A stretch of DNA of 64,000 bases, from NCBI GenBank assembly GCA_964016885.1, contig OZ024741.1, positions 281,046,001 through 281,110,000 of the forward strand. The letters are read 5' to 3'. Below are positions 3,143 through 63,708 of this stretch, piece after piece (position 1 is the stretch's first letter; each line of letters starts with the position of its first letter). A program made the position numbers and the translations under genes. The DNA is from Eledone cirrhosa (lineage: Eukaryota). The notes below the pieces were generated by a model. The model worked only from the letters and a program-made list of their open reading frames with translations. It made no database searches and was not told the DNA's origin.

Positions 3143-4635
3143 GTAGTATAGTATTACTGTTGAAAGTATATAGTATAGTATTACTGTTGAAAATATATAG
3201 TATAGTATTACTGTTGAAAATATATAGTATAGTATAGTATTACTGTTGAAAATATATAGTACAGTATTACTGTTGAAAATATACACCACCCCCTTAAATG
3301 TCACGACAAAAAAACACACAGTCCACGCTGTAATGTGGCTGTGTAGGTAACACGGTAAAAACCTCCCAGTCCACACTGTAAACGTGGTTGGTGTTGGAAA
3401 GGGCACCCAGCCATAGAAAACCCGCCAGACGTGTAGGTGTCACGACAATAAAACACACAGTCCACGCTGTAATGTGGCCGTGTAGGTAACACGGTAAAAA
3501 CCTCCCAGTCCACACTGTAAACGTGGTTGGTGTTAGGAAGGGCATCCAGCCGTAGAAAACCCGCCAGACAGTCCTGAGAAAGTCAACCGATCTTGCCTCA
3601 AGTGGGACAATTCCCGTCCAGACCCATGCTAGCGTAGAAAATGGACGTTAAACGTTGATGATGATGATGATGATGATAGTATTACTGTTGAAAATATATA
3701 GTATAGTATGACTGTTGAAAACATATAGTATAATATTACTGTTGAAAATATATAGTACGGTATTACTGTTGAAAATATATACTATAGTATTACTGTTGAA
3801 AATATATAGTACAGTATTACTGTTGAAAATATATAGTACAGTATTACTGTTGAAAATATATAGTACAGTATTACTGTTGAAAATATATAGTACAGTATTA
3901 CTGTTGAAAATATATAGTACAGTACAGTATTACTGTTGAAAATATATAGTATAGTATTACTGTTGAAAATATATAGTACAGTATTACTGTTGAAAATATA
4001 TAGTACAGTATTACTGTTGAAAATATATAGTACAGTACAGTATTACTGTTGAAAATGTATAGTATAGTATTACTGTTGAAAATATATAGTACAGTACAGT
4101 ATTACTGTTGAAAATATATAGTACAGTACAGTATTACTGTTGAAAATATATAGTATAGTATTACTGTTGAAAATATATAGTACAGTACAGTATTACTGTT
4201 GAAAATGTATAGTATAGTATTACTGTTGAAAATATATAGTATAGTATTACTGTTGAAAATATATAGTATAGTATTACTGTTGAAAATATATAGTACAGTA
4301 TTACTGTTGAAAACAGTTTAGTATAGTATTTCTGTTGAAAATATATAGTATAGTACAGTATTACTGTTGAAAATATATAGTATAGTATTACTGTTGAAAA
4401 TATATAGTAGAGTATTACTGTTGAAAATATATAGTATAGTATTTTTGTTGAAAATATATAGTATAGTATAGTATCACAGTTGAAAATATATAGTATTACT
4501 GTTGAAAATATATAGTACAGTATTACTGTTGAAAATATATAGTATAGTATAGTATTACTGTTGAAAACATAGTATAGTATTACTGTTGAAAATATATAGT
4601 ATAGTATAGTATGACTTGAATACGTATAGTATAGT
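3143..4635. repeat. 27/32-bp AT-rich minisatellite (ATATAGTACAGTATTACTGTTGAAAAT) interrupted by an RTE tail
   Basis: Tandem units at about 3143-3283 and 3677-4635. Confidence 0.95.
3284..3676 (+). mobile_element. RTE 3'-UTR-derived insertion with (GAT)n tail and internal 139-bp tandem duplication
   Basis: Ends CATGCTAGCGTAGAAAATGGACGTTAAACGTT(GAT)n, like the RTE tail at 51568. GTCACGAC...CCCGCCAGAC is repeated at 3300 and 3439. Confidence 0.8.
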
Positions 4636-14449: not shown

Positions 14450-15077
14450 GTAAGAAATATTATTTTGAATCATTAGTGGGTGATTTTGAATCAAAGGGCG
14501 GTGTCAGTAAGCTGTTGGACAACATGCTTTGTGGCATATAATTACAGCCCTTTATGTTCTGAGTTCAAATCCTGCTGATATTAGCTTTGCCTTTCATCCT
14601 TACAGGGTCAATAAAATAAAATATCAGTAACTTACAGGGGTTGATTTAATTGCCCCCCCCCCCCCCCCCCCCCCTCCCATCCAAATTGTTTTTCTGCCTA
14701 CATCAGAAACCATTATTTTGAATCATCGGATATAAAAAAGAAATAAACATTTTGAAGTAAAACTATTTTACAGGTGTAGGAAGGGCATTCAGCTTTAGAA
14801 GCCATACATAAACTAGAACATATATAAGTGAGACATGGCCTCCAGCCTGTTCAACCTATGCCAGCATAGAAGAACAGATGTTAAATGATAATTCTGATGA
14901 TGATGTGTTCACTGATATATCACAAGGCAAAAATTAAGGAAAATTGAAGCATTATATCAAATACAAACAACAATGCCTCAGATTTGTCATAAATTGTACC
15001 AAAAATTTTTTTTAATAATAAATATATTTTAAAGATCCAAAAATAAAAACAAACAAAATTTAGGATAGTGTAGTGTC

Positions 15078-15138
<61 letters not shown>

Positions 15139-15256
15139 ATGCATGTGTAGTGGCCAATAGCAACAGTTTGAACCAGTTGAAAGGTTGTTCCCTTCTCCTC
15201 TTCTCCATTCATCAGCTCTGTTTCTCCAACATACAGAATCCCAGACATATGCCACC

Positions 15257-15490
15257 TCATGGTCCCAGTAGACAGAATAGAGCTTGCACTACTCCAGAAG
15301 AAAGCAAGAGAGACATGTTGAAAGAGCCATTCCAACTCACAAGGCTTACTCCTGCAGATGACCAGCTTTGTCCCAATAGCAGTATGGAGGTAGTTTTGAG
15401 ACCCAGAATGCCAGAGGTCTCCACTGCTATACGTTTAATGACAAACCTATTGGAAAGTGGCTGATACTTCAACAACTTGTGATCTTCAGT
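15257..15490 (-). mobile_element. CRE/RLE-type non-LTR retrotransposon C-terminal fragment
   Basis: KLLKYQPLSNRFVIKRIAVETSGILG... and, in another frame, EWLFQHVSLAFFWSSASSILST resemble the KY..L...F.P.AVET.G and QR.S.A..RGNA.SIL motifs. Confidence 0.55.
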
Positions 15491-15913
15491 TGTATCTGTA
15501 TTTGTAATCTTGCTGATAAAAATTATAACAAACTCTAAAAGACCATTATTAACCATAATGTGTTAGTGTATTTGTGTGTGTGTATATATATCATCATCAT
15601 CGTTTAACGTCTATCTTCCACGCTAGCATGGGTTAGATGGGAATTGTCCCACTTGAGGCAAGATTGGTCAGGTGACCGTGTCTTGCTCATATAGAACTAT
15701 CTGGCAGTTTTCTATGGCTGGATGCCCTTAACACCACCCACATTCACAGTGTGGACTGGGAGCTTTTTACTGTGTTACCTACACGACCACATTATAGCGT
15801 GGACTGTGTATTTTTTTAATTTTTTTTTGGACTATGTAATATATACTAGGGTTGCATCATATATATATATGTAATTCTTCAACGTATCAGTAACCACATA
15901 AATTATAGGGTTT
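15330..15913 (+). repeat. Local segmental duplication, copy 2
   Basis: Direct repeat of 12914-13497 at an offset of about 2.4 kb. Confidence 0.9.
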
Positions 15914-18751
15914 CCCTTCTGCAAACCATTGATTTATCAAAACACAACTTTCTCAGTTTGTCTAATTGCCCAAATATCCAGCAACCCTAGTATATATTAC
16001 ATAGTCCAGAATTTAAACACATTCAACACTATTGCTGTCATTATTGATAGCACTGATCCACTAGTATTAAATGATAATTAACCTTCACATTATCATACGT
16101 TAGACAAAAACACTACATCCATAGGATGTGAACCTACAATAGAGGGACCCTCTATTGTAGGTTCTCAACTTACTAGAAATAGCAGTAAAATTTTCCTCAA
16201 ATCTCAGCTCACCATTAAAATGATTGGATAATGCAGTCTTAGAGTATGTGTTAAATGGGATGCTTTAGATCATACATGTACTTGAACAGGTTACAACAAC
16301 AACATATTAATAATAAAACAAAAGTGAAACTCAACTAGTTCATATGTTTTTATTGGCAGCATGGCCTTACCATTGTAAAAAGTAATTTTTTTTTCTTTTA
16401 TGTTTTTTTTCTTCTAAACTGCCATTTGAAAGATGTCATAAATGATAACCTTTAGCTCATCATAACAAGTCTATAATATAACAAAATGCTACATACCCTC
16501 ATTAATCTACTTAAATCTCAACATCCTATAATGATTACCACAAAATATCTAAAAATCATTATCATCACTATTTTACGTCCATTCTTCCATGCTAGCATTG
16601 GTTAGACAAGTTGTCCTGTTGTGGGCAATGCCAGGTCAGGTGACCATGTCTTGCTCATACAGAACTGATTTTGGCTTGATTTCTACAGCTGAATGCCCTT
16701 CCTAACACCAACCCCATTTACAGTGAGTACAGGGTGCATTTTTATTGTGGCACCTACACGACCACTTTACAGTGTGGACTGAGTGCTCTTTTTTGTGACA
16801 CCTAAACGACCACTTTACAATGGGTTTGTTAATTCAAATATTTATAGAGTCTTTACTGCTGAATTGTGAAAATTTGCAGTAAGCTAGATTATTATTTTTA
16901 ATGTGATGCAATCACAGTAATTTTTTTGAGTTTTCAAAAATGTTTTGCCAATGTCATATCATGAGGTTTGTTAATTCAAATGTTTACGAATGGACAGATC
17001 ATTGGGCAAATTATAATTTCTAATGTGATCCAGTCATAGTGCGGTTTTACACTTTCCAAGAATGTCTTACTAGTGTGGTTTCTAAGGTACAGGACATTAA
17101 CATTTAATTCAGAATAGTGTTGATGTTATATTTGGCAAATGTTCATGCATATGGACTTTTGTTGATAATTATGTTTTAGTGTTCTGTGAGAGTTTTTAGC
17201 TTTATAGAGGTTATTATAGAGGTTATTAAAAGTTCATAAAGACTTAAATGTCAACTTACTGAAAAGCTAAAATTATAACATCTTTGAAGACTTATTTTTC
17301 ATAGTTTTTGCCATTTAATCAAAAATACATAGATGGCTGGCTGTTTTGAGCTTCTTTGATGTTTTACTTAAGATTGTAAACCAAATGCAATTTATATTCA
17401 TGCAGTTTAGCTATGTCAGTATGTAAATATAAAATTTATGTTAAGGGTAGTGGTTTGGCAGAATCAGTAGAACGTTGGACAATATGCTTTGCAACATATA
17501 GTTATGTCCCTTTACTTTCTGAATTTAAATCTCATCTTTGCCTTTCATCCTTACGGGGGTCAATAAAATACCAGTAATGCACTGGGTCAATTTAATCGAT
17601 TTCCCCTCCCCTAAAATTGTTGGCCTTTTCCCCAATATATTTGGAAAACTGCAGCTGTTTTAAATTCATCACCCATATATTCCCATCAAATATTAAACAG
17701 CCTACAAGATTAAAAACTAAATGTGACGGATGCAACAACCTCTCTAGTGCTGGTGACTCAACAAAATGCACCCAATACACTCTGTAAAGTGGTTAGGAAT
17801 TGGAAAAGGATCCAGTCATAGAAAGCCTACCAAACAAAGGGTCGGGAGAACTCTTCAACTGTGTAAAAAACATAACTTACCTAGTGTTGGTGCCGTGATA
17901 AAATGCACCTGATGTATGTATACATGATACCCCTGACACAGTCTCCTCCTCCTTCAATACATTGGTGTGATCAGTAGCTCTGATTAAGTACTGACTTGGT
18001 ATATGATTACCCGGCCAACCCTTGCTAGCAGGGAAATCAGACGTTAAGTGACGATGATGTTGTTTATCAGTTTGTATGTTAACTAAACATACATAAAACT
18101 GAACGTTCCCAGCATACTGAATCCCACCACATAGTTTTGCTTTCTGATTGTAACCAATTTCACTTCACTTATGCTGGAAATACAGTTGGAAAAATGAACA
18201 TCACACCTCTAAATTCTTCTCCTCTTTCTAGTCCAGAGAGTTAATGAAAAATAAAAAAGGTTAAATTCTGTCCTAAACCTGGAGGTTAATAATGCTGGTG
18301 TTTATCCTTAATTCATTGGTTTTAAGTGACTGCGAGTCCCCTTAGACAGGACACGAGTTTGTTGTTGCATGGTTAACTCTCAGTTACTGCTGCTACTGAA
18401 GATGCCTAAAAATTATATCAATTATATCAATCAAAAGATATTGTAAATAAAAACAAAATACTTATGGCTCTTGGTAAACTCAGGATAACACACTAGAAAA
18501 ATTAAATATGCCATTAAAGATATATTCATTGAGATTCATCATCATCATCATCGTTTAACATCTATCTTCTATGCTAGCATGGGTTAGACGGTTTTGTTCC
18601 ATTTGATGCGGGATTGGTCGGGAGACTATGTCTTGCTCATACGGAAGTGTCTCTGGTAGGTTTTCTACGGCTGGATGCCCTTCCTAACACCAACCACTTT
18701 TACAGTGTGGACTGGGAACCTTTTTACCGTGTCTCCTACATGACCACTTTA

Positions 18752-20045
18752 CAGGGTGCGGATGATATTTGTTCGCAAGATTACTGCCTAGGAAAAAATA
18801 ACACAGTAGTTTTATTTTTTAAGATATATTTATCAAACTTGTGTCAGTTTGTCTTCATGACTTGTTCTTTCGATCTCACTCGATAAACCCGCCATTGGCT
18901 TTGATGACGGCCTCAAGGCGGCCTCGGAACCGGCTACAGGGCTTCGTCACTGTCCCCCAACTTAGGCTCCTAAAGGCACTTGTGAACCTGGCCTTCAGAT
19001 CGTATTTCGTATTGCAGCTAGATCTGTTGGTGTCTCGTTCCACTGTGCCCCACACAAAGAAATCGAGGGGGTTGCAGTCAGGCGAGCTGGGAGGCCAGAT
19101 GTCAGGTGAAGTGTAGTCGACGAAGTTCTCTGACAGCCAGGCTTGGGTCTTTCGGCTGGTATGGCAGGGTGCTGAGTCTTGCTGCCACACGTATGGCCTA
19201 CCTGCAGCTACCTGGTCGATCCAGGGCTTTACTACCTCGCTCAGAACCCGGATGTAGCCATCGGTGTTCAGCTTGAGGCTCTCAGGGAAGAAGTGAGGTG
19301 GCATGACGTCACCTTGACTGCTGACGACACCTAAGACCAATGTTGTCACTGGAAACTTTGTCTGCATGACTCTGGGCACGTCTTTGGATGAGACAGCGAG
19401 CCACCTGTTGTTCTGGGAGTTGATCTTCTGGTCTTGGCAGAAGTTTTTCTCGTCGGAGAAAAACCACAGCATGTCTGGCTCCAGTGGGTGTTTCAACTTG
19501 TTGATCAGCTTCTTTGCGTACTTCAGTCGCTTTTCTTGCATCGCCTTTGACAGAAATTGTTCTTTCTTCATCTTGTATGAAACGTAGCGAATGGCTTCAT
19601 GTAACACCAGCCTAATGAGCTTTTCATCCATGCCTTTCTCCCTTGCAATGGCACGCATCGACTTGCTAGGTTCATTGTTGATGACATCCTGAACTTCAGC
19701 GACGAACTCGGGCGTTCTGAAGGCATCAGATTGTCGATCATGTGTTTTCCTCTCTGATGTTGCTTCGTAGTCAAATCCTGAATCTTCCAATTCCTTTCTG
19801 ACCTTTTCCACCATTCTCCTGCTGATGCTGGGAAAGTCTGAAATTTCCTTATTTGTCCTCCCGGCGCGGATTCCAAGAAGAACTCCGTGTCTCTTCCACA
19901 AATTTGGAGGTTCAAAATTATTCATAATCAATTATTCTGAAAATAAATAATGGAAATATTGTCACTGTTTTTATGAAGACAAGAGTGACAACGGAAGTAA
20001 AAAAAATTTGCATAAAATTAGCAGTTGAAAATCGCGAACAAATAT
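18752..20045 (-). mobile_element. Tc1/mariner maT (DD37D) transposon
   Basis: TA|CAGGGTGCGGATGATATTTGTTCGC at 18752. Only the inner 12 bp of the other TIR (GCGAACAAATAT, 20034-20045) remain. Inserted into an RTE-tail repeat. Confidence 0.9.
18876..19931 (-). CDS. DD37D (maT) transposase, 351 aa, uninterrupted
   Basis: WFFSDEKNF, VWQQDSAPCH and WPPSSPDCNPLDF motifs; 37 residues counted between the 2nd and 3rd Asp; N-terminal HTH-like region. Confidence 0.93.
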   Translation of the reverse strand: MIMNNFEPPNLWKRHGVLLGIRAGRTNKEISDFPSISRRMVEKVRKELEDSGFDYEATSERKTHDRQSDAFRTPEFVAEVQDVINNEPSKSMRAIAREKGMDEKLIRLVLHEAIRYVSYKMKKEQFLSKAMQEKRLKYAKKLINKLKHPLEPDMLWFFSDEKNFCQDQKINSQNNRWLAVSSKDVPRVMQTKFPVTTLVLGVVSSQGDVMPPHFFPESLKLNTDGYIRVLSEVVKPWIDQVAAGRPYVWQQDSAPCHTSRKTQAWLSENFVDYTSPDIWPPSSPDCNPLDFFVWGTVERDTNRSSCNTKYDLKARFTSAFRSLSWGTVTKPCSRFRGRLEAVIKANGGFIE

Positions 20046-21794
20046 TGTGTGGACTGAGTGCTTTTTGTTGTGTCACTGACACAGTGGACGGAAATAGAAG
20101 GATGGGGTAGGGTATGTGGGGGTGTATATTGAGTTAAGAGGTGCCTACTGACTAGGTTTGTATGCTATTAGCTATGCTATTCAGATACTAAATATCTATC
20201 AGCTTTTGGAGAGAACCCTGTCTGTCATTAGAAATACGGCAATGAAAGGGTTAATCAAATGCTAGATTAATACAATTTGCTCAAATATTTAATTAATATT
20301 TAAAAAGAAAATTCTATATGTAAATTAAATGGTGAAGCAGTTTTAGAAAGCATTGTTATATTAAAATTAAAAATGATGTAGCAGCTGTGACAGTGATGAA
20401 ATAAAATATAATATTGGGTTAGAAATGATTTAGATGCTGTGACAGTATGTCTGATGAAATAAAATATAGTATTGTGTTAAAAATGTTCAGTTTTAAAAGA
20501 CTTTGATCAGTGAATCGACATAGGATTCCCTATCATGTTAGAAATTGTTGCGTTGGTTAATGATTAAAGAAGCTGCAGGTGAAATCCTGACCCTATGAAC
20601 AAGTTTAAGTTATTGTTGATGTCTCTTGACCAAACAGGAGATAAAATAAAAATGAAAAGACAGCAGCAGAGTCAGTTAGTAGCATCACAGGTTCACCAAT
20701 TTAGCACAAATTCTGCTCCAGTGACACATTCAATGAGAAATAGCAGTAGAGTATAAAACTATAAAGATCATCCTTTTTTTTTTTTTATTACTGTCTAAAA
20801 TTACTGCAGTTGAAGGTAGAAACTATATCTCTCCAAAATGGTTAACTGAATATGCACATGTTTTTTTCTCATTATTTTCTGTTCCTTCCTCTTCTTTATC
20901 TTTGTATTTCATCTTTTATTTCTCATTCTATCTTCTGATGAAAAACTAGTGCCTGAAACATTAAGACTCTTTTCCTATTATTTTAAGCATTAAACTAATA
21001 TATTTCTTCATTGTACTTGGACGTTTGCTTTGTTATTTCTGTTTACTTTTTACACGCACACACAGACACACATGCACACACCACACACACCACATACACA
21101 CACAATTTTTTTATTTTTTTCCATACACATTGTCTGGACTCCTAAGTAATTTTAAACTTGCCTATATATTTAGCATATTCATGAAATTGTGAAAGTGCTC
21201 TGTTCATTGTGGTTTTGATTCTTTGGCTGTTGTTTTCAATGTGACCTTTAACATTAACAGATGTTGTACATATGCAAAAGATAAAGCTGTAAGTTTTCTG
21301 TTGATTCCATGCCAGCTAGCTCATTGTTTTCCACTCATCTACCTCTCTGAAACCAGTACTTATAATATAACTACTAAGCTTTAAGCATAAACATTTACCT
21401 GATATTATAGGTGAGAGATGATAACTAGAAGCTTCTACCAGTTGCTGCTGTACTAGTGACTACCTACCAGCACCATTGTTGTCTACCTGCTTGGTTTATA
21501 GATCATGTTACTGAAAAAAATAGCCAAGATTGAAATTACCTAAATTATCTGTGTATGGGCACATAAATATCTACATTCATGAGTTCTTCAATAGACCATG
21601 AAATAGATTTTGCATAACTCTTTTTTTAATTCTATTTTGTTTTTCAACAGCTGAGGATTTTTACTTGAAATATAAAACCTACATGAATATTTTTTTAAAT
21701 TTGCATATGGTATTAACTAATTTTGTTAAAAGCTTGTAAAATATTACATAAAGGATAATACATGAAATTTTGACTTTTCTTTCTATTCAAATAT

Positions 21795-22145
21795 AATCAT
21801 TATCATCATTACTGCTGTCATCGATGTCATCATCATCATTGCCATCATCACCATCACCATTACCACCTTCATCATCACCATTACCACCACCATCATCATC
21901 ATCACCATCATCATCACCACAATCGTTATCACCACCACCATCATTATCACCACTACCACCATCAACACCACCACCATCATCATCATCACAGCTACCACCA
22001 CCAACATCATCCTTATCACCACCACCACCACCATCACCACCACCACCACCATCACCACCACCACCACCATCACCACCACCACCACCATCACCACCACCAC
22101 CACCATCACCACCACCACCACCATCACTACCACCATCACCACCAT
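21795..22145. repeat. (CAC/CAT)n trinucleotide low-complexity tract
   Basis: Visible directly; produces the poly-V/M and poly-P/S pseudo-ORFs. Confidence 0.95.
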
Positions 22146-23407
22146 GTTTATTTTTCTAAGCTTGCATGGTTTAGACAAGTCCTTCCCAGCACAATGTCAT
22201 TCCATTTGTTTTTTTCCTTTGTCATCTCCTTTGTATGGCTCACTTTCTTGAGGTCAACTTTCACGCCACCTCTGCCCACATCCCTTTTGCTCTTCCTCTT
22301 CTGCAGCTTCCATCCTCCTGGAAGTCCTGGCACTTCTTCATCCAATCATCATGTTGTATGTGTGTGATTCATTTTCACTTCCATTCTTTCATGTTGTTCG
22401 GGATGTTTTGAGGCAATATTTTACACCTGGATGCCCTTCCCGACACCACTAACACTTTTCGGCATCTCTTTGGCATGCAGGGATACGGTGTATATATTTT
22501 TAAAAAATGAGATACACACGGCATAAAGCATTATGTGTAAAAACAAACAAACACTAAACACCAATAAACAAACAAGAAAACTAAATATCCTAATCTCTGA
22601 GAAAACAATTGTGGAATAAGTGACATATTTATCTGGGCCAATTAGTTCCAGGTTTTGGTGGTGTTGTGAGACAAGTGAATGGCTTCCTTGTATAGGCTAC
22701 CACACTGTTGAACTAGAAAATATGACACCTATTCTTAACTGTTAGGGGAGTTGAAGCACATAATTAGCAGAGAATAACTAATTATATATATGTAGTTGAT
22801 AGCTCCTGTTACCTAAGTGACCTAATTAGTTAGTAGGAGAGGAAGTTGCTCTGAAATCATAGTAAATACAAGAACAAAGTAAAAAAGTTCAGAGGGCTAC
22901 TACATCTGTTGGCAACAAAAGCATTCTCTCTATGAATAAAGGGTAAACAGTGTGGTGTTGTATAACAGTGAGACATGGGCAGTGAATGTAGAGGATGTAC
23001 AAAGACTGAAGAGAAATGATTCAAACATGCTCCTCTGAATGTGTAATGTTAGTGTGCATGAAAGTCAAGTATAGGTGAAATGAGAGATAAACTGGACATA
23101 AGAAGAATGAGATGTAGTGTGCAAGGGAGCAGGTTGTGCTGGTAAGGACATATGTGTATAAATGATGATTGTTAGTTGAAGAATCGTGAAAGAGGAAGAT
23201 CAAAAACGTTATGAGCAGAGGTTGTAAAAGTGGACCTTGGGAAGATGCTATTTTGGAGAGGACTCATCTATCTTATGCCTGAATGAAAAACATGGATGAA
23301 AAAATGAAGATGAAAAACCGAAGATGAAGATGATGATAAAGATGGTGAAATGGGATATGAAAGCAACTGTGGTTCTTGGCTGCTGTTTTATTTTTACCTA
23401 TCTTATA

Positions 23408-23600
23408 TTATGTCAGGACTTACCTATCTCATACCTGCATGTTATGTCAGGACTTATTTACCTCTTACCTGTATGTTATGTCAAGACTTGCTCACTCACC
23501 TGATACCTGTATGTTATGTCAGGACTTCCTCACTTACCTCTTACCTATATGTTATGTCAGGACTTGCTCACCTCTTACCTGTATGTTATATCAGGATACT
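23408..23600. repeat. 30-36-bp minisatellite, about 6 copies
   Basis: TGTTATGTCAGGACTT...ACCTCTTACCTGTA repeated. Confidence 0.85.
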
Positions 23601-24240
23601 ATCTACTAGTCACAACTCCTGGCAGAATGTGCAAGATGAAATAAAGTGTCTTGCTCAAGGACATAACACATTGCCTGGTCCAAGAATCAAACTCGCAACC
23701 TTATGATTGTGAACCCAATTCTCTAACCATTAAACCACATGCCTTCACCATAAGCCTGTCATAATAATTTTATAATTTTATATAAGCACCTTTGTTCCAA
23801 ACACCAGCTTAATAGGCAATAAATTGGCCATGTCATTAAAAAGTTGAATAGAATGTTTTGTGGTAATTTATTACAGCTATCTGCTCTCTGAGGTCGATAA
23901 AAAAAGTACTAGTCATGTATGGGAGTTGATTTCTTCTTCTATATGTCATTTTCACTTCCTCTCTCACTCACTCTCTCTCTCAATCACTCTCTCCTTCTTT
24001 CGTAGAAACCAGTAATGTTCAGACCGGGAGAGGGATAGGTTTCACCAGGTTTAAAATACCAAAGACATGTCATATGTCATTTCAACTCCACCAATAATTA
24101 TGGGTCCATGCTAATACAAACACCAACTTAATAACAAGAAAGTTAGTTACTGTTCTAAATCCCACCAAAATCTTGAGTGTTTTCAAAATTATTTGAAAAA
24201 TCATAGTGTTTTTCATTAGAAATATGGTAATAAAAGAGTT

Positions 24241-24403
24241 AAAGTGTTTTTATATATATATAAAAACATTCCATCATACTTTTATGTAAGAACTTTTGTT
24301 TAGTTCTGTTCCACATAATCTTATTATTTGGAACAGAACTAAACAAAAGTTCTTACATAAAAGTATGATGGAATGTTTTTATATATATATATAAAAATAC
24401 TTT
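24241..24403. repeat. Fold-back palindrome, arms of about 70 bp
   Basis: ...CATTCCATCATACTTTTATGTAAGAACTTTTGTTTAGTTCTGTTCCA, a short loop, then its exact reverse complement. Confidence 0.92.
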
Positions 24404-25032
24404 ATATATGAAAACACTTTAAAGTTATAACTAAATCCCTCCAAAATCTTGTATTTTCAAAATTATTTAAAAAACAGGCAATGTTTTGCATTAGAAATAT
24501 GGTCATGTAAAGATTAAAAAAGGAAGAACATTGAATAAAGTAGTCATAGATACACTATGCATGAAAAAAATAGATGGGAGGAGGATGGCTGTAATGACTT
24601 TGATCTGCTTGAACAAATCTGACCTGAGACTAAACAGTAACAATAACTCATTTGATGTAATGTATAGTTAGTTCTCATGCAAAAAAAAAAAAAAAAAAGC
24701 TATGAATGATAGGCATCGTCTGCAGGCATCAATATGTGAGTTAAAGAAACATTTATTATTATATATAGAATTTATATATATTTATTATTATTATATAGAA
24801 AGTATATATATATACATATAAGTTAACTTTGTCTTTCATCCTTCAGTCAAGAATATATAGTTTTCTTGTCTGTAAATGAGGTGATTAATCTCATTTATTT
24901 CTTTTCTATTATAAGTTGACCCAACTTATGCAACTTCATATGCAAATGAGATTAATCACTTCATTTGGACAGATGAGAAAACTATATATTCTCGACTGTT
25001 TTCAAGTCCAGCAGTAGCAAGCGGTGGGAGGG

Positions 25033-25076
25033 ACCGTCCTGACGAAGGCCAGTCAAGCCTGAAATGCATAGACGGT
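25033..25076 (+). ncRNA. Minimal type I hammerhead ribozyme (Penelope pLTR-type)
   Basis: ACCGTC-CTGACGA-AGGC cagtcaa GCCT-GAAA-TGCA-TA-GACGGT. Canonical core, palindromic loop III, stem I extendable to 25006-25100. Confidence 0.85.
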
Positions 25077-25219
25077 TGTCCCCCCCTGCTTCTGCTGGAC
25101 ACCACAAGAGGGCGTTAGCCAGAAATACGAAATTTCTATACATATTGTATAAAGCTATGCTTGAAGCAAAATCTTATTTCTTCCCTTATATATATATATA
25201 TTATATTATATTACCCAAG

Positions 25220-25410
25220 GGCAGTGGATTGGCAGTATCGGTAGAGAGTCGGACGCCATGCTTTGACGCATAGAGTTACGGCCCTTGTCATTCTGAGTTC
25301 AAATCCCGCCGAGGTTAACTTTGCCTTTCATCCTTACGGGGTCGATAAAATAAAGTACCAGTAATGAACTGGATAATTGCTGGCCTTGTGCCAAAAGTAG
25401 AAACTATTAT
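25220..25410 (+). mobile_element. Young tRNA-derived SINE
   Basis: Box A TGGCAGTATCGG, box B GAGTTCAAATCC, central CTTTGCCTTTCATCCTTACGGGGTCGATAAAAT; flanked by TATTATATTACCCA direct repeats. Confidence 0.88.
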
Positions 25411-25779
25411 ATTATATTACCCATCTGCATTGTTGAGGCTTCCAAAACGACCTAAAGAAAATATATCTTATTATTCCACAATGCTTCAAGCAAACTTCAA
25501 TACTTTCTTATATTATATTATATTATCATTATCATTGTTTAATGTCCATTTTTCCATGTTTGCATGGCTTGACACATTGTGAAACAAGTTAGAACAACTG
25601 ACCAAGTGTTGCTTGCATTGATCTATATTTTGTTAAAAGATCTGTATTTTGTTAAAAGAAAGTCTTAAATGGAGATGGCATTTTCTGACTGACTTGTGTG
25701 TACTGGGTGGCCTGGATCTCTTGAAAAGCACCTAAGCAATTAAGAGTGATAATCTCCAATTTTCAAAAATGGAAGCAAG

Positions 25780-27030
25780 AGAGATTGCTCCAGTTATAGA
25801 TGGATCTCCTTGTTAAAACTCTCCAGCAAAGTCTATACTGTTTAGCAAAGAGAGATAGGGAGATTGTCAAGTCCAAGTTAGCTGACAAACAGTGTTGTTT
25901 TTACCCTGGATGTTACACAGCTGACCAAATATTCACACTGGGGCAGGTCTTTGAGAAATTGTGAGAGTATTGCAAAGAGGTGTTTGATTGTTTTGTTTAC
26001 CTTGAAAAGGCATATGACCATGTTCCACAAGACCCTTTGTGGAAGGTTCTGCAGGAGTATTGGATCAATAGACAGCTTTTTGTTGCCCTGATATCTCTAC
26101 ATAAATGTCCTAGTATTTGTGTTCAGTTAAATTATGCTAAGTCAAAACTATTCAAAATGGGAATCAGACTCTGCCAAGGGTGCGTACTGTCACCTCTTCT
26201 GTTCATTATTTTCATGAATAGGATTGACATACACTGCTGGGTCAGATGTGGTATCAAGACTGGCAGGTGTAGGATCAATTGGCTGGAATTTGCAGATGAC
26301 ATGGTATTACTTATCAGAAGGTGATCTCTGACATGCACACAAGAGCTTTGCTGCTGAGTGCTGCATGGCTGGAATGAAAATCAGTGTTGTGAAGACTGAG
26401 ACACTTGTCCTCTCAAGAAAACCTGTGCAGTGCACTCTACATGTGAGTGGAGTCACACAGAAGTAGGTGGAGAATTTCAAATATCTCTGGGCCATGTTCA
26501 CATGTGATGGAATACAGGGGGCTGAATTAAGTGCAAGAATTGCAGGAGCTGGTGCAGTAATGCGCCAGCTTCAACATTTGGTCAGCAGAAGAAGGGAGGT
26601 ATCACTATCTTCAAATCGGTATTCATGTCAATCCTTACCTATGATCATCAATCTTGGGTAATGACCGAAAGAATATGATCTTGAATACAAACAAGCGAAA
26701 TAGGGTTCCTCTGAAGAGTCCTTAGAGTAATGTTACTCGACAGAGTGCATAGCTCATAGAGCAGAGAGTTGCTCCTGGTAGAGCCACTACTTCTCCAAAT
26801 TGAGAGATAACTGCTCCATGGTTAGAATGTTTCTGGAAAAAATCGCTGAACAGATTTTATGTGCCAAACCAACTAGCAGGAAACCCAGGGGTAGACCCCA
26901 AGCAAGATGACTGGGTAACATCCATGAGCTCAGCTGGTTTTGCTTGGGGATCCAGTCAGATCATTTGGAGACAGTTGCATCTAACAACATGCTGGAAGGT
27001 GTGCTTAAGGAATAAGTGGGTAAAGAAGAA
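25780..27030 (+). mobile_element. Rex3/Expander-like RTE-clade LINE, degenerate 3' half
   Basis: CFVYLEKAYDHVP, GIRLCQGCVLSPLLF, LEFADD, ENFKYL, LTYDHQSWVMTERI and VEPLLLQIER motifs with stops and frameshifts. Confidence 0.88.
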
Positions 27031-28479
27031 GAGAAGAATATATATACATATATATACTATAGATTTATACACACACACACTATATATATATATATACACA
27101 CACACACTATATATATTTGGTGCGTTATGGTCCACCTGGTTCCTTACCACTTTTCCTCCGTTATATATATATATATATATATATATGACAGAGAGAGAGA
27201 GAGGGACATAGATGACACCATTGGCAGAGAATGTTTTAGAACCTTTGAACCCCAACTTTTTTGTCTTGCATTTGTGTTCCATAAATTCTAAAAAAAAAAA
27301 AAATAGAACATTTTTATGAGAGCAGCATAGTGTTCATGAAGATGGAAAACAAATAACAGTACAATTATTAAAAGACAGAGATTTATAGCTTCTTAGTGAT
27401 TATAGCTCAGAGTAAATTCTTTTGTAACAAATCTCTCTCAGTAATGGATATAGATAGATTGTTGGAGAAATCAAAGGTTTTATATCACCATAGATTGTTA
27501 AGAGGTTATCAGTTTGGATTTCATTTTCATTTAGATTCCTTATGGAGCAGATTTGTAAGGTATTACTTATGACATGGATAGCGAATGGAAAGAAAATCTC
27601 TAAATCTCTAATTAGAGGTTCATCTTGTAAATAGTTTAATTAGAAAATATAGAAATATGTTTTGATGAAGAGATGATAATGATTAGAAAGATGCTCATTC
27701 ATTAATTTATGAGTGGCAGGAGACTGGGTTACACTGAGATATACTATATTTGACAGCTTATAAGAAGCACCTCAATTTGAGCAGTCATTAAAAAAAATAA
27801 TAAATGGGTTTAAACTATGAATGTCATGTGAAGAGTACAAAATTTGTACATCATATTTTTTTATCATCATTTTACATTGTATGATAATTCTACTTGTAAT
27901 ATTTTAGTACATTTTTAAAACATAAGGAAGTGTGAAAATAAATTTACTTTATTCTCTACACCATATTTTTTTGTTGAAACATTTAGTTCATATTTAAAAG
28001 AAAAGAAAGTGAAAATAAATTTACTTTATTCATCATAAAATTTAGCAAATTTGTAGCTATTGTTGGTGTAGAAGCGATCACTGCCTTGTTTACATTTGCA
28101 GAGATGTTTGTGATTTAATTTAAGGGCAACTGCAGCACTAGAACTCCACTAGCCAGTGACCCAAACTGACCCTTGACCTTATAAGTTGCAGGGTGATTTT
28201 CTAGGACATTTTTTGGTAAAAGATGTGTGTCTTATAAGCCATCAAATACAGTGTATAAATTATTTCATAATGAGTAGGTGGACTTCTTTTTAATGTTAAA
28301 ACGTCTATTACCATGACCACCATTTACATCACCACTAAGAATACTGCTACCACCATCAACATCACCACTGCCACCTCTATCACCATTACCACCAAAACCA
28401 CCACTTCCAACCATAACAATCTCCACCTCACAGATACCCCCAATACCACCACAAGCAATTATTATTATTATTATTATTT

Positions 28480-29135
28480 GCTACTGAGGAGCTATTCCAG
28501 ATCGAGATAAACTTTACAGGCATGCAAATGCCGTCATTCAGGCTTGTCTGAGATGTGCGCAGGGTGATGAAACTATCTTGCACGCACTCTTCGAGTGTCT
28601 TAGTATTGCTGACATGTGGGTTTTTGTTGAACATCTACTGTCACGTGTGGGATGGATCTGACTATCAACTGAGCCCATTGTGAAGGTCACCCTGCCATCT
28701 TCCTTTAGAGGAGAAGGACAGTCAGATTTTATCTGTCGTGTGGCCATGGCGAAAGAGGTCATATGGTGGATGATTAACTTTTTCAGGTTTCACCTGATGA
28801 GATAAATCAGAGTGAAGAGGGAAATGCTGCCTACCAACAAGTTTTTTGAAAGATGGGTGAGAGAGGTGAGTATGGTTTGAGTGAATGGCCTGCACTGAGT
28901 ATGCACCTGCAAATTAGAGGAGGACTAAGAAAGAGCACTTGCCCTTTTTGTGGGCTTTTTCCACAATTGACCCTAGGAGGTACCCCCACTTTTGGGGAAT
29001 ATGTTTGATTTTTTAAAATATTTATTTTTTAGTCTTTGTTATAAACTCGTTTTACACAAAAACCCACACTATACTATCATGTGCCGTTTTTATTATTCTT
29101 TTAATGTGAGCCCTATGTGGTTAATAAAGAAAGCA
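28480..29135 (+). mobile_element. Tx1/L1-like LINE 3' end (CCHC zinc knuckle plus 3' UTR)
   Basis: GAIPDRDKLYRH...CLRCAQGDETILHALFEC (C-X2-C-X8-H-X4-C); AATAAA near 29122. Confidence 0.75.
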
Positions 29136-31051
29136 TCATTATTATTATTATTATTTTGTGTGCTATCTCTGCATTATGGAGCACAGCTCTGTGTGCCTTG
29201 TGTATGTGCAGTATGGTTTTTGGTGGTGTTCTATTCTATTGAGAGTACCCTTCATAATAGGAAATGTTCATAAAGTGAAACTATTTTTCCTACGAAATGT
29301 TGAGAGAAATACAGTGAGAGAGACTGTGTGAAAGACAGATAGATATCACCATAATAACTAACTTCACAGCAAGTGATGCTTTCCTGCCGATACTCCCAGC
29401 TGTGTGTTCGTTACTCGAGACACCGTTCATCAACCGAGGCATTTTATGTTCAGAAAAATTGTTCACAAACAGATTTGTCTGTGAACCGATGCTCAACTGT
29501 ATATATATATATATATATATATTATGGTTAATGTCTTCAACATATAAGAGTTGTTACCTCCGATTTCAAATGCTGCATGTATACTAGATTGTGCAATTGT
29601 GCAGATGCATGCAATGTTATCATTCAGTCAACTAAACAAAGATGGCTGATGCTATTAACGTGAGATCTCATATGTATAAAGTAAATTTAACTGTTTTTAT
29701 GTGTTTTCTGTACTGTAAATGTTTTAGTTTGAACATATGGTCTCAGATCAACTCTGAAATAGGTGGTGATTCTTATCTATAAATTTGTATGTAGGTTTCT
29801 GGAGCATCACTGAGGAAGAACTATGAAGATAACACTAGAATAGTTTCCTATTGCCTTCCTCAAGCACACCCTACTGCAAATTAATAGAACATGAAGCAAT
29901 TGTACAGGGGTGGTATTGCTGCTTAGAGTGGTGTCTATTTATAGCTGAGTGGACTGGGCCTTACCCAGTCTATCCTACTAGCATAAGATAAATATTGTTT
30001 TCTTACTAAGGTTCACAAAAAGAAAACAGCATTTATTTATCTTACAGTAGTTAGCTTTTTGATTATATTCTAATCAAATTACTTTTTTAAAACCCATTTG
30101 ACTTCTAGCTTCCTAAAATTAAGTAACAATAAGATATTTTGGTTAATTCAATTGACTCTATCATGCCTTTTAGTTTGTTTTTCTTTTTATATAAAAAATC
30201 CCAAATAATCAGCCAATGAAAAATCTGTCTAGATTTAGTTTAAAGTTAGTTTAAACACATATCTTGGCTTCTTCAGAAAATATTTCATAAATAAAAAAAC
30301 ATACTGGAACATTCTGAATTTTGATTTTATTATCTCCTAGTAGTTATCATTGCCATCTATCTATTTTCAGTTTGTCTACATCCACTTGCTTTCTATCATA
30401 GGCATTCAGTCATTGACAGTCACTAAAGGGTATTTTGTAATAAACCTTTCACTTGTGTCATCAAAAACAACTGGCATATATAATCTGGTAGAGTTGATTT
30501 CTTATAATGTGGTAGAGTTGAATTATTATAATAAAAAACCAACAAAAAAATCGAGTTCTTGCAACAGGTGCAGCGAGTTGTTGGGGTTGCCATTGTAAGC
30601 ATTTGACTGTGTGTCTATCATGACATTTCAATGGGCCTTAGAAGTGTTTGGTGGTGCTCATCTTCCCATAACTGGTGCAGCCAGTTGTTGGGGTGCCATT
30701 TTAAACGTTTAACTGTGTGTCCATCATAGCATTTCAATGGACCTTAGAAGTGCTTGGAAATGACCATCTCTTCTCCAAGCATCCAGTCCCTCATTAAGTT
30801 TAGCCTAGCTTGCCAAGAGAAACAGTTACTGGGGTGTGACTGAAAAATGTCCCAGACCCAAAAGTGTGAGTCAGGTGAGAACCTGTACACCTGTCCATCC
30901 CTAAAGATGCTGCTGTCATAATGTGCCAGTTTTGTGTTAATATTTCTAAAATCCCGAATAACGCTATGTCTTGTATTGCAATAACATTTCTTCAAATCAC
31001 TTCACTCTATTTTCAAAGGAACATTAGATAATGCTATGTCCATTATTGAAA

Positions 31052-31245
31052 TAATTGTTTCTACTTTTTGGCATAAGGCCAGTAATTACCCAGTACATTA
31101 CTGGTACTTTATTTTATCGACCCCGTAAGGATGAAAGGCAAAGTTAACCTCGGCGGGATTTGAACTCAGAATGGCAAGGGCCGTAACTATATGCGTCAAA
31201 GCATGGCGTCCGATGCCTCTACCGATACTGCCAATCCACCACCCT
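31052..31245 (-). mobile_element. Young tRNA-derived SINE with 17-bp TSD
   Basis: Reverse complement of the 25220 family; TCCATTATTGAAATAAT at 31039-31055 and 31246-31262. Confidence 0.9.
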
Positions 31246-32033
31246 TCCATTATTGAAATAATGTTTCTTTAAATTATTTCAATTTACTTTTAAAGAGTAA
31301 TGGTACTTCTGGTTGATAAAAGCCAGAATCTGAGTAAATTCATGATGGTTTACATTGGCTCAGTACTTTCAGTTCTTCATATACAATTTATATAATTTTT
31401 TTGATACCAATCTACCTGAAACCTCCCCTGATTCTATGATACAAAACTGTTTATTTCTAAAATGTTTAAATTTGTGTAAAATCTTTCCAACATAATTTTA
31501 TGTAAAGAACCTTTAAGTTATGTAACAAACACGAGTTTAATAATGGTTTCTCGTTTAGGCACAAGGCCAACAATTTTGGGAGAGGGAAAGTTGATTAAAC
31601 CGACCCCAGTGCATTACTGGTACTTTATTTTATCAACAATAAATTTGGTGGTATTTGAACAATATGGTCTAAGCCTATTGTCTGATACTCTACTGATACT
31701 GCCAATCCACTGCCTTCAACACCAGTTTAATAATGATGATGTTAATTGTATTAATACATCTCAACAAATTCTTCATTAATTGAATGTTATTGGTAATGTC
31801 TTTTATTAGAAATTTAGTAGTATAATTACCACTACCAATATCATCATCACTACCACCATCATCATCACTACCACCATCACTACCACTACCAACATCACTA
31901 TCACTACCACCATTACCACCATCATTACCACTACCACTACTAACACTACTACCACAACTATTACCACCATTACTACCGCTACCATCACCAAACAGTCAAT
32001 TAGATAATGAATATTATCAGATAGTTACACATT

Positions 32034-43760: not shown

Positions 43761-44061
43761 TATAAAGAAAAAGAGATGAAATCGAAAATGCAACTGGAGT
43801 CTTATTTTTTTTTTTTTAAGTATATATATTTATTTGGTTCCTTTACCGGTTTCGCAGTTCTTCTGCTTTTCAAAAGGTGAGTTGAGATGGAGGGTCTGTG
43901 GTTTTTCTCAGATGTGAGAAAAACCACAGACCCTCCATCTCAACTCACCTTTTGAAAAGCAGAAGAACTGCGAAACCGGTAAAGGAACCAAATAAATATA
44001 TATATTTAAAAAAAAAATAAGACTCCAGTTGCATTTTCGATTTCATCTCTTTTTCTTTATA
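43761..44061. repeat. 300-bp near-perfect palindrome (arms about 150 bp, 4-nt loop) between TA microsatellites
   Basis: Centre TTTTTCTCA-GATG-TGAGAAAAA at 43911-43914. Arms differ only in poly-T length and about one base. Confidence 0.95.
43948..43985 (+). ncRNA. Minimal type I hammerhead, U3-A8 variant (mirror copy 43840-43877 on minus)
   Basis: CCTT-TTGAAAA-GCAG aagaa CTGC-GAAA-CCGG-TA-AAGG. Confidence 0.75.
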
Positions 44062-44681
44062 TATATATATATATATATTCATTTATTATGGCTAAATAGT
44101 GAGTCTTGTTACTCTGGAGTTTCACCTGTGCACTCACAGGGTCATCAGACAAGTTCTTGTCTGAGGATCCCATGGGCTGGGTGCTTTTTGTCATGACACC
44201 TACATGAACACTTTACAGTGTGGACTTGGTGCTTATTGTTGTGGCTTTAGGATGACCACTTTATTGTGTGGATTGGAGACATGTTCAGGGAGTCACTGAT
44301 TGTGGTTGTGGCAATCACTGATAATCGGTGCTGCCACAGCCAGCCACTCACCATGGTGCTATCTAATTTCAACCAATATCTCCACATTTGCGCATTGCCT
44401 CATAAATTCCAACATTTCACCACAAAATACTTTTATCTGTAAACACTACATTTAGTAGCAACATGTTGATGAAACACTCTATTATATCAAACCTTTTATG
44501 TATTCTGATTGTGTTTTATTTTGCTACATGGTGTCATCATATACCATAGTCGAATAAAAGTATAAAAATTATCAGTTTGATTTTCATGTTGGTCTGTCCT
44601 AATTCACCACCTAATTTCTAGAGTACAATGAATGAAATGATTTGTCACAGACTAATAACAAGTTCTTATATTCTATTGCAG

Positions 44682-61843: not shown

Positions 61844-62128
61844 TTAGTTATATTTATAATATTTGAATGTCCTTCTAATTTTATGGTTACATGCTATAAT
61901 TAATTCTTGTCTTTTATTTAATAGAGTGTCCTTCGATTTAGTAATTTCAAAAATTTCTTGGGAACATAGTCCACACTCCCTTCTATTGCCCTGATAAGAA
62001 ATGGCCCTCTTGAGAATCTTCCAAGTTAGGTTATAGTCAATATTCTTCTTTTTACAATTATTAACTGCTTTTGCTAAAGAAGTGGTATTAGCTAATTTTG
62101 TATTTCGGAAACTGTTGGTGTGTGCATA
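61844..62128 (-). mobile_element. Penelope-like (Naiad-type) GIY-YIG C-terminal fragment, open frame absent from the ORF track
   Basis: YAHTNSFRNTKLANTTSLAKAVNNCKKKNIDYNLTWKILKRAISYQGNRRECGLCSQEIFEITKSKDTLLNKRQELIIACNHKIRRTFKYYKYN* (H..SF, TSL, W.IL, CxLCxxE, LNKR.E, CxH motifs). Confidence 0.85.
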
Positions 62129-62158
62129 AATATATATATATATATAGGAAAAAGTATG

Positions 62159-62254
62159 ACCCCGACGGCAGAGCTCAAGCCGTTTCGACGGCTATTTCTT
62201 GACTAAATTAGAATTTTTAGCCTGGTAAATAAATAGCCGAACTTGTCAAGGGGT
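62159..62254 (-). ncRNA. Type I hammerhead, U3-A8 variant with full stem III
   Basis: Minus: ACCCC-TTGACAA-gtt CGGCTATTT...AAATAGCCG tc-GAAA-CGGC ttgagctct GCCG-TC-GGGGT. Confidence 0.8.
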
Positions 62255-62579
62255 ACTTCCTTATATGGGAAGATTGTAGTTGTCAAGAGGATTGGTCAAA
62301 ATTTGTTGTAAACACAAATAAGTCTGTCATGGCATTTGGTGGGAGGTAGGGGTAGCTGAACTTGCCTGTAGAACAATGAGGGAGTGAGTGGAGCCGGTCA
62401 AGCGTTGAAAGTGAAATCTATACAGCAGATTCTAAGGATAGTGTATGAAAAGTCGAAAAATTGTTCTGGAGAAAATGGAGGAGGGAAGTAATAGAATAGG
62501 TAAGTCAAATGAGAGTAGGAGACAATAAAAAATAATAGAAAGAAATATAAAGAAAATATATAAAATTAGATAGTGAGAA

Positions 62580-63312
62580 ATGAATAAAAAAAACACCAAC
62601 AATATATTATGGTTCGCTCCTCCTTTCTCATTAAGTATTAAAACTCTTATTGCTAAATTATTCTTTAAAGCTCTAGATAAATGCTTCCCTAGAACACATA
62701 GGTATTACTCAATATTTAATAGACATACTATAAAATTAACGTATTCAACCACCAGTAATTTAGCGCAGAATAGTAATAGAATTAATAATAGAAACTTAAA
62801 ACCTAACCAGAATACCATTAATAACCCCAGCAATATCCAACTGAATAATACGGCTCATAGAAACTTAAATTTAGATAAATGTAACTGTAGAAATAAATCT
62901 AACTGTCCGTTAAATAACAATTGTTTAGTTAAAAATATAGTATATAATTGTAATGTAAAAACTAATTTAAATTCATTTAATTAAGTAGGCTCTACCGCCA
63001 CAGATTTTAAGTCCCGTTTTAATAACCATAAATGCTCTTTTACGAATATAAATAAAAAAATCTTCAACTTCTCTATCTAATTTATTATGGGACCTAAAAT
63101 CAAAGAACACTAACTATTCTTTTCTTTGGAATATTATCTCCAAAGCTCCTCCATTCAATGCTTCTTCTGAAAATTGTGCTCTTTGTATAGAGGAAATATT
63201 CTTTATATTAAAAAGTAAGAATTCTGTTAATTTAAGGAATAATCTTTTCAGTTCTTGCAAACATAGATTGAACTCAACGTTTAAATATATATATATAAAA
63301 TGTAATACATAA
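62580..63312 (+). mobile_element. Penelope-like (Naiad-type) 5'-truncated ORF: RT thumb, linker and GIY-YIG, disrupted
   Basis: ILWFAPPFS...IFNRHTIKLTYS, CNCRNKSNCPLNNNCLVKNIVY...*VGSTATDFKSRFNNHKCSF, a frameshift near 63060, then TSLSNLLWDLK...WNII...CALCIEE...CKH. Confidence 0.9.
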
Positions 63313-63653
63313 TTCATCTTTATTAAACCTATCGATAATTCATTAGATTCCTTCATATGACTGCTTATAACTCTCTTAAAAGAAAAAAATTTTCTTGAAA
63401 ACTTTTCTTGATAAATGTACTAAAAGATTTGAAGAAGGATTTTTTTGAAAATTCCTACGATGGGTATAAGGAAATTATAATTCATAATTCATATTTTATT
63501 TTCTATATTCTTATATTTTTTAAAATTATAATTCATATTTTATATTGTATATTTTATATTTATGTATTTTTCAAATGCTTAATATATATATGTATATATA
63601 TAAAATAAAATGAAATAAATAAGTCAAATGTTTAAAATTTGGCTTCGTTTATT

Positions 63654-63708
63654 ACTGCTATATATATTTCGGTGACAGCCATCTTTGGCTGTGACCTCTT
63701 CAGGCAGT
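63654..63708 (-). ncRNA. Minimal type I hammerhead, canonical core
   Basis: Minus: ACTGC-CTGAAGA-GGTcACAGCCA aaga TGGCTGTcACC-GAAA-TATATA-TA-GCAGT, then AATAAA. Confidence 0.85.

Follow-up and report, generated by a model that had tools for sequence, protein, structure and literature searches.

We found a complete type I hammerhead fold on the minus strand of the window (the whole 64,000-nt stretch of DNA that was analysed, searched by a sequence scan), in which a U3-A8 pair replaces C3-G8 and whose stems are unusually long, so that it is predicted to fold as a single molecule. By its structure the motif is a hammerhead, and cleavage is predicted. On balance we hold it probable that this is a type I U3-A8 hammerhead at the 3' end of a repeat, capable of slow cleavage as a monomer after GUC while keeping the dimer option. 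For this, the minus strand would be transcribed, and the long stem III would let one RNA fold and slowly cut itself after GUC without a partner, between 62164 and 62163. The U3-A8 pair would, judging from published work, stand in for C3-G8 in positioning the active site. Without loop I-loop II geometry, the kinetics would be like those of a minimal hammerhead and would resemble those of the fungal motifs with a large helix III from Penelope-like elements (PLEs). The job of the ribozyme would be to free the element RNA from longer or tandem transcripts, and the retained palindrome would still permit the usual PLE dimer form. Genomic copies retain about 16 nt beyond the cut site, so reverse transcription would use uncut or re-ligated RNA as its template; a circular-intermediate model for PLEs is described in PMC4209133. 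The context supports this reading: the repeat ends at (TA)n, it is abundant, opposite-strand joints are present, and remnants of Hydra PLEs lie on both sides.

Table 1. Coordinates of the hammerhead, its parts and its surroundings in the window
Feature	Position	Strand	Basis
Endonuclease C-terminal fragment of another Hydra-clade PLE, beyond (TA)n	61850..62128	-	Profile i-E 6.6e-20; CxxC..E and CxH motifs
(TA)n microsatellite at the 3' junction of the repeat, likely insertion target	62130..62146		Sequence; (TA)n preference in PMC8557442
Host repeat, very abundant, depth falling toward the 5' side	62147..62593	-	Read depth; profile search
Type I hammerhead fold, whole motif	62159..62254	-	Motif scan and 400 shuffles
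Stem I 3' strand and short tail reaching the repeat end	62147..62163	-	Folding; depth starts in bin 62148-62178
GUC triplet, predicted cut between 62164 and 62163	62163..62166	-	Hammerhead consensus (predicted)
Stem III, 5 bp and 9-nt loop, near self-complementary overall	62165..62183	-	Hairpin -6.5 and self-duplex -26.9 kcal/mol
Core strand G12 A13 A14 A15.1 (GAAA)	62183..62186	-	Sequence
Stem II arm, 56 nt: G10.1-C11.1, 2x1 U loop, 9-bp helix, AT-rich imperfect distal hairpin	62187..62242	-	Folding
Core strand U3 U4 G5 A6 C7 A8 A9, U3-A8 replacing C3-G8	62243..62249	-	Sequence
Remnant of a broken Hydra-clade PLE ORF with RT thumb, CxCx5C linker and GIY-YIG endonuclease, facing the repeat head to head	62577..63288	+	Profile i-E 1e-46 and 5e-17

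The TTGACAA core, 5-bp stem I, ACGGC/GCCGT stem III, GAGCTC loop palindrome and GUC triplet listed in an earlier sequence-only reading were all found at 62159-62254 on the minus strand, and a motif scan of the plus strand of this region found no hammerhead core. The motif has the type I core, N3 U G A N N8 A with G A A A, in the U3-A8 variant of a Watson-Crick 3-8 pair, and A9 directly adjoins G10.1, without an extra base between them. The three helices open at stem I, whose strands are 62254-62250 (5') and 62163-62159 (3'); folding predicts that it continues past a 3-nt bulge, pairing the 62147-62163 region with about 62255-62266. Stems I and III had probabilities of about 0.7-0.97 in three of the five folded contexts, and stem I was lost to other pairings in the remaining two. 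Stem III pairs 62183-62179 with 62169-62165 around a 9-nt loop laid out as two bases, the 6-nt palindrome GAGCUC (62176-62171) and one base. The A15.1-U16.1 pair is present (U16.1 at 62165), as is the NUH triplet, GUC at 62166-62164, which ends in C17 (62164). The long stem II of the earlier reading exists as a 9-bp helix (62239-62231 with 62189-62197; most of its pairs exceed a probability of 0.9 in each of the five contexts, the two end pairs being lower). However, it does not start at the core, from which it is separated by the lone closing pair G10.1-C11.1 (62242 with 62187, with a predicted probability no higher than 0.06) and a 2x1 all-U internal loop. Another copy of the UUGACAA core lies about 35 nt upstream of the motif, at 62278-62290 (-), preceded by a C-rich run and without a matching GAAA; it is possibly a short duplication.

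We then consider the 3-8 pair. When positions 3 and 8 were left free, all five matches of the window scan were Watson-Crick (two C-G and three U-A, the U-A ones from two unrelated families), and 100 shuffles gave three matches, all mismatched at 3-8; the window scan itself missed the motif at 44148. This supports the view that selection acts on the 3-8 pair. Two AT-rich matches of a separate scan, at 4480 and 53074, were set aside as chance in low-complexity DNA. The C3-G8 hammerheads of the window have N3 at 25039 (+), 44148 (-) and 63703 (-). A minimal U3-A8 hammerhead is present as an inverted pair, 43840-43877 (-) and 43948-43985 (+), with N3 at 43873 (-) and 43952 (+), which agrees with the earlier statement that there are two sequence-unrelated U3-A8 cases. 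The argument built on it, selection on the fold through the C3U/G8A double change, gains support from these matches but loses its novelty: the covariation is already published (PMC3088659, PMC4209133) and is thus not the surprising part.

The inverted pair belongs to a near-perfect 106-bp inverted repeat (43805-44020) with 4 nt between the arms, a minimal U3-A8 hammerhead in each arm and A/T runs at the ends; it is a truncated PLE end arranged head to head. At 44100-44153 (-), some 100 bp away from the pair, lies a C3-G8 hammerhead of Hydra-like form with a 4-bp near-palindromic stem III. At 63654-63708 (-) and 25032-25077 (+), the window has hammerheads of the ordinary minimal C3-G8 kind, both with a palindromic helix III. 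A weak U3-A8-like motif at 63403-63451 (+) is placed about 100 nt past the stop of the plus-strand Hydra ORF remnant, where its hammerhead is expected; its stems II and III are poor, so it is decayed or a chance match.

Predicted folding was compared with that of eight control hammerheads, namely four motifs of the window and four of the 16 matches in Hydra-clade loci. The stem III hairpin alone had an energy of -6.5 kcal/mol, versus +1.3 to +6.0 in the controls, and pair probabilities of 0.71-0.91, versus 0.00-0.02. From these energies and probabilities, it is the only motif of the nine predicted to build its junction without a partner. The lowest-energy fold, however, pairs U3, U4 and G5 with A13, G12 and C11.1 and lies 1.1 kcal/mol below the active secondary structure; this trap would depend on U3, as C3 could not complete the pairing. 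The strict active secondary structure made up 0.04-2.4% of the predicted ensemble over the five contexts, in nearest-neighbour folding that ignores core tertiary contacts. On each arm, over 20 nt separate loop II from the core, too great a distance for the canonical loop-loop acceleration, which would thus be unavailable. Monomer self-cleavage is plausible from the stable stem III, and probably slow because that geometry is missing, G10.1-C11.1 is isolated and mispairing depends on U3. The idea of the sequence-only reading that the motif may cleave as a monomer is therefore upheld as far as stem III folds alone, while the duplex, the misfold and the distant loop II argue for slow or mixed behaviour.

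Stem III also forms a self-duplex of -26.9 kcal/mol, the strongest among the nine motifs and 13.9 below two hairpins, with 16 of its 19 bases paired and with helix III and loop 3 palindromic. Being near-palindromic with this strong self-duplex, it leaves the dimer route open, and the ribozyme could even act mainly as a dimer: the loop palindrome would seed kissing of two RNAs or tandem copies, a 16-pair duplex would then serve as stem III for two cores, and the monomer hairpin would be a waiting state. Besides the duplex energy, this agrees with the rule for animal PLE hammerheads, a palindromic helix III and dimer action, and with the layout of a 6-nt palindrome in a 9-nt loop, which is that of the HIV-1 dimerization loop (PMC4066764). 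Yet the three flanking loop bases are U, where the HIV-1 dimer is said in the same source to need purines, and a second copy of the motif was not found in the 64-kb window. Moreover, a loop palindrome is also the expected, functionless leftover of a longer perfect palindrome. We consider predominant dimer action unlikely, although it is the most credible of the rivals to a slow monomer.

Four public sequencing runs were mapped on 61900-62800. In run X1, the depth, which is not copy number, was about 2.1 million over 62148-62209, about 176,000 over 62210-62271, 41,000-168,000 on to 62457 and 15,000-32,000 at 62489-62581; on the endonuclease fragment left of (TA)n, it was 700-2,740. The ratio of depth between the 3' half and the 5' half of the motif was 12.0, 16.9, 9.6 and 11.2 in the four runs, a drop of about tenfold inside stem II. 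Low-agreement loose ends clustered at 62194-62209 and opposite-strand joints at 62195-62204, both within the 3' arm of stem II. The depth step and the loose ends fit 5' truncation and fold-back at the long hairpin, though diverged full-length subfamilies would look alike, and one case of a diverged 5'-half subfamily was visible, as a loose end of run X4.

Sequence variation among copies was then inspected. Among the 40 of 245 substitution rows listed, none touched the two core strands or stems I and III (for gaps, 12 of 17 rows were listed). Contig 17 of run X5, from organism B, covers 62159-62296 with two other letters and one gap. By depth and distance to its end, these changes are placed at 62200, at 62227 and as an added base behind 62249, and U3, A8, stem III and GUC would thus be unchanged, judging from the tabulated changes. 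The added base lengthens the C run beside U3 and was found in 9% of the depth in X1 and 24% of the reads in X6. At 62200, the window letter differs from 94-100% of the mapped sequence, so this copy is slightly diverged. The X4 loose end, represented by three contigs with an agreement of 0.99, reads U4 G5 A6 G7 A8 A9 G10.1 A U on the minus strand and then enters the same 9-bp helix; 30 letters were shown, and U3 lies beyond them. In this variant, N7 is changed, A8 is kept, and A10.2 is able to pair with U11.2. An altered free position together with an improved stem II and an unchanged A8 looks like selection on the fold.

This variant bears on whether the motif is a relic, that is, a descendant of a PLE hammerhead with negligible cleavage in vivo, whose 3' half would be retained to serve a short non-autonomous repeat as its terminal structure or for priming, and whose intact core in some copies would be inherited rather than selected. 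The excess of 3' halves over core-containing 5' halves in all four runs, the many mixed loose ends in stem II, the presence of sequence on both sides of the cut site in genomic copies and the sequestration of the core in the lowest-energy fold all point that way. Against it stand the X4 variant, with its appearance of fold selection, and the depth step itself, part of which may be subfamily divergence, since diverged 5' halves were not counted on the window. This explanation is doubtful in our view and comes second among the rivals.

The slow monomer with a dimer option could also be part of a more elaborate device, a two-state hammerhead in a very abundant animal retroelement. Its U3-A8 core would fold alone, and its stem III loop, like a retroviral DIS, would kiss, switch to the dimer and time cleavage, while the long stem II would stall or flip the reverse transcriptase, so that roughly nine of every ten genomic copies would be 3' half-ribozymes without a core. 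We regard this combination as improbable.

Rfam hammerhead models gave no match to the motif, either at the gathering score or at E up to 10, and none to the ordinary C3-G8 hammerheads of the window, so the Rfam models miss this class. A descriptor written after the motif had been seen (any Watson-Crick 3-8 pair, five Watson-Crick pairs each in stems I and III, a run of at least five in stem II) gave one match in the window and none in 400 shuffles, and the folding z-scores of the motif were -2.36 and -2.64. Chance assembly of short stems within AT-rich repetitive DNA, which the Rfam result, the modest z-scores and the post hoc descriptor might suggest, is already largely refuted and very improbable, because no shuffle reproduced the motif, its stems are GC-rich amid a region of 30% GC, it sits at a repeat end, the usual seat of PLE hammerheads, and it is conserved in a second organism.

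The host repeat is likely a Penelope-like retrotransposon. Hydra PLEs insert preferentially at (TA)n and are defined by a CxCx5C linker, by CxxC and CxH around the catalytic E and N, and by the lack of CCHH (PMC8557442). According to these motifs, CNCRNKSNC marks the plus-strand remnant, and CGLCSQE and CNH the minus-strand one. The Hydra-clade profile was built from 10 of the 150 homologues listed; homologues carry RWK and DKT, and one is named from Argonauta hians, which hints weakly at a cephalopod as host. Pfam recognised neither the remnants nor seven homologues, a word-indexed protein search with the thumb fragment gave no match, and the Hydra profile had no match in viral contigs. The repeat end, (TA)n and the depth gradient fit a 3' pLTR placed downstream of a PLE RT-EN ORF, but a sense ORF upstream of the motif is absent from 62255-62593, where there was also no match to the Hydra profile and no ORF homology; nor was sequence homologous to the repeat found after the plus-strand remnant. 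The parent gene was not found; the label Penelope-like rests on architecture.

As to other parents, the 3' ends of the Naiad consensus sequences of Octopus bimaculoides, O. vulgaris, O. minor and Euprymna are unlike the motif by eye, and the whole supplement of PMC8557442, in which line breaks could hide a match, contained none of three 11-letter motifs; Naiad was therefore rejected. Naiad elements are said to bear half-core motifs. In file S5 of PMC8557442, the 3' termini of Naiad_Obim and Naiad_Ovul, elements described as lacking canonical hammerheads, show by eye GAAA ahead of CUGAUGA and possible stems in the stretch that separates them, which is how a type II hammerhead is ordered. When the 3' half was searched as an exact 22-letter pattern, viral contigs gave no match; the 11 matches in metagenomes, all of 52-72% GC and without hammerhead context, were dismissed as chance. 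Hydra-clade PLE genes, some with hammerheads, were also seen in contigs filed as bacterial genomes (L012-L022), which are probably host animal DNA in the bins. Elsewhere in the window, 18876-19931 (-) holds an intact-looking 351-aa frame of a Tc1/mariner-type transposase with weak HTH_Tnp_Tc3_2 and DDE_3 matches, and 1638-2897 a tandem array of more than 20 near-identical 48-bp units, kin to dispersed 48-bp units in other parts of the window.

The role of hammerheads in PLEs is unsettled, in part because those of animals show hardly any cleavage in vitro. If a natural animal motif folds alone and also pairs with itself, monomer and dimer, as well as U3-A8 and C3-G8, could be compared in one RNA. 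In addition, a very abundant family escapes both Rfam and the published descriptors, which expect a C3-G8 core and a short stem II, so that genomic counts of hammerheads in such genomes are likely too low. A literature search found no description of an animal hammerhead that combines U3-A8 with a helix III of 5 bp and a stem II of 56 nt, although Lunse et al. 2017 and Arkhipova et al. 2017, who reportedly catalogue many hammerhead variants of PLEs and Terminons, may already have recorded long-stem or U3-A8 forms.

The core swap itself is not new, and the unusual part is the size of the stems. Natural hammerheads with U3-A8 were described in 2011 as active in vitro (PMC3088659), and about 1,300 matches with this pair come from the Cercyon PLE motifs of Schistosoma mansoni (Cervera and de la Pena 2014, PMC4209133). 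Like the motif described here, these are type I with U3-A8 and a proximal stem I of 4-5 bp, and occur as dispersed single motifs tied to truncated PLEs. They differ in that helix III is all but absent and positions 9 and 10.1 are separated by an additional base, whereas the present motif lacks that base and has a helix III of 5 bp closed by a 9-nt loop as well as a stem II of 56 nt. The 56-row animal alignment of the same paper has two U3-A8 rows, both minimal, and no helix III in it exceeds 3 bp, the longest carrying a palindromic loop of 4 nt. Hydra-clade PLE hammerheads (Craig et al. 2021, PMC8557442) share the sense-strand position near the 3' end, the insertion at (TA)n and a real, near-palindromic helix III; remnants of this clade flank the locus, without a Hydra ORF linked in sense upstream of the motif, and the 3' end of Octopus bimaculoides Hydra-1 is unrelated to it in sequence. 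All 26 Hydra rows of file S2 of that paper are C3-G8, with a helix III of 3-4 bp and loops of 1-3 nt. The 16 matches in Hydra loci, found in four of 11 loci and several of them repeated copies, were likewise all C3-G8 with a short stem III; two loci had even shorter stems. Stem III of the present motif is thus longer than in any of the 56 and 26 animal PLE motifs examined from these two sources. Animal non-LTR retrozymes (PMC7229834, PMC7761336) are also type I, with a bulged extended stem I and in many cases a stable helix III, and monomer cleavage is known from invertebrate ones. They are, however, tandem repeats of 150-400 bp with a 4-bp helix II and contacts between loops 1 and 2, in contrast to the single copy in the window and its 56-nt stem II arm. 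Engineering helix III in animal PLE motifs gave weak cleavage, mostly at non-physiological Mg, which counts against the slow-monomer reading. In its favour, fungal PLE motifs with a large helix III cleaved as monomers at 1.97 and 0.16 per min at 10 and 1 mM Mg (PMC4209133). In minimal metazoan PLE hammerheads, helix III is missing or not long enough for a monomer, and a further base sits between 9 and 10.1; with its -6.5 kcal/mol hairpin and adjoining A9 and G10.1, the present motif falls outside the minimal definition while it would work like a PLE hammerhead. In its large helix III, its variable helices I and II without recognisable tertiary contact and its predicted monomer competence, it resembles the large-helix-III type I motifs that PMC4209133 reports from fungi and protists, and here such a form stands in an animal-type genome.
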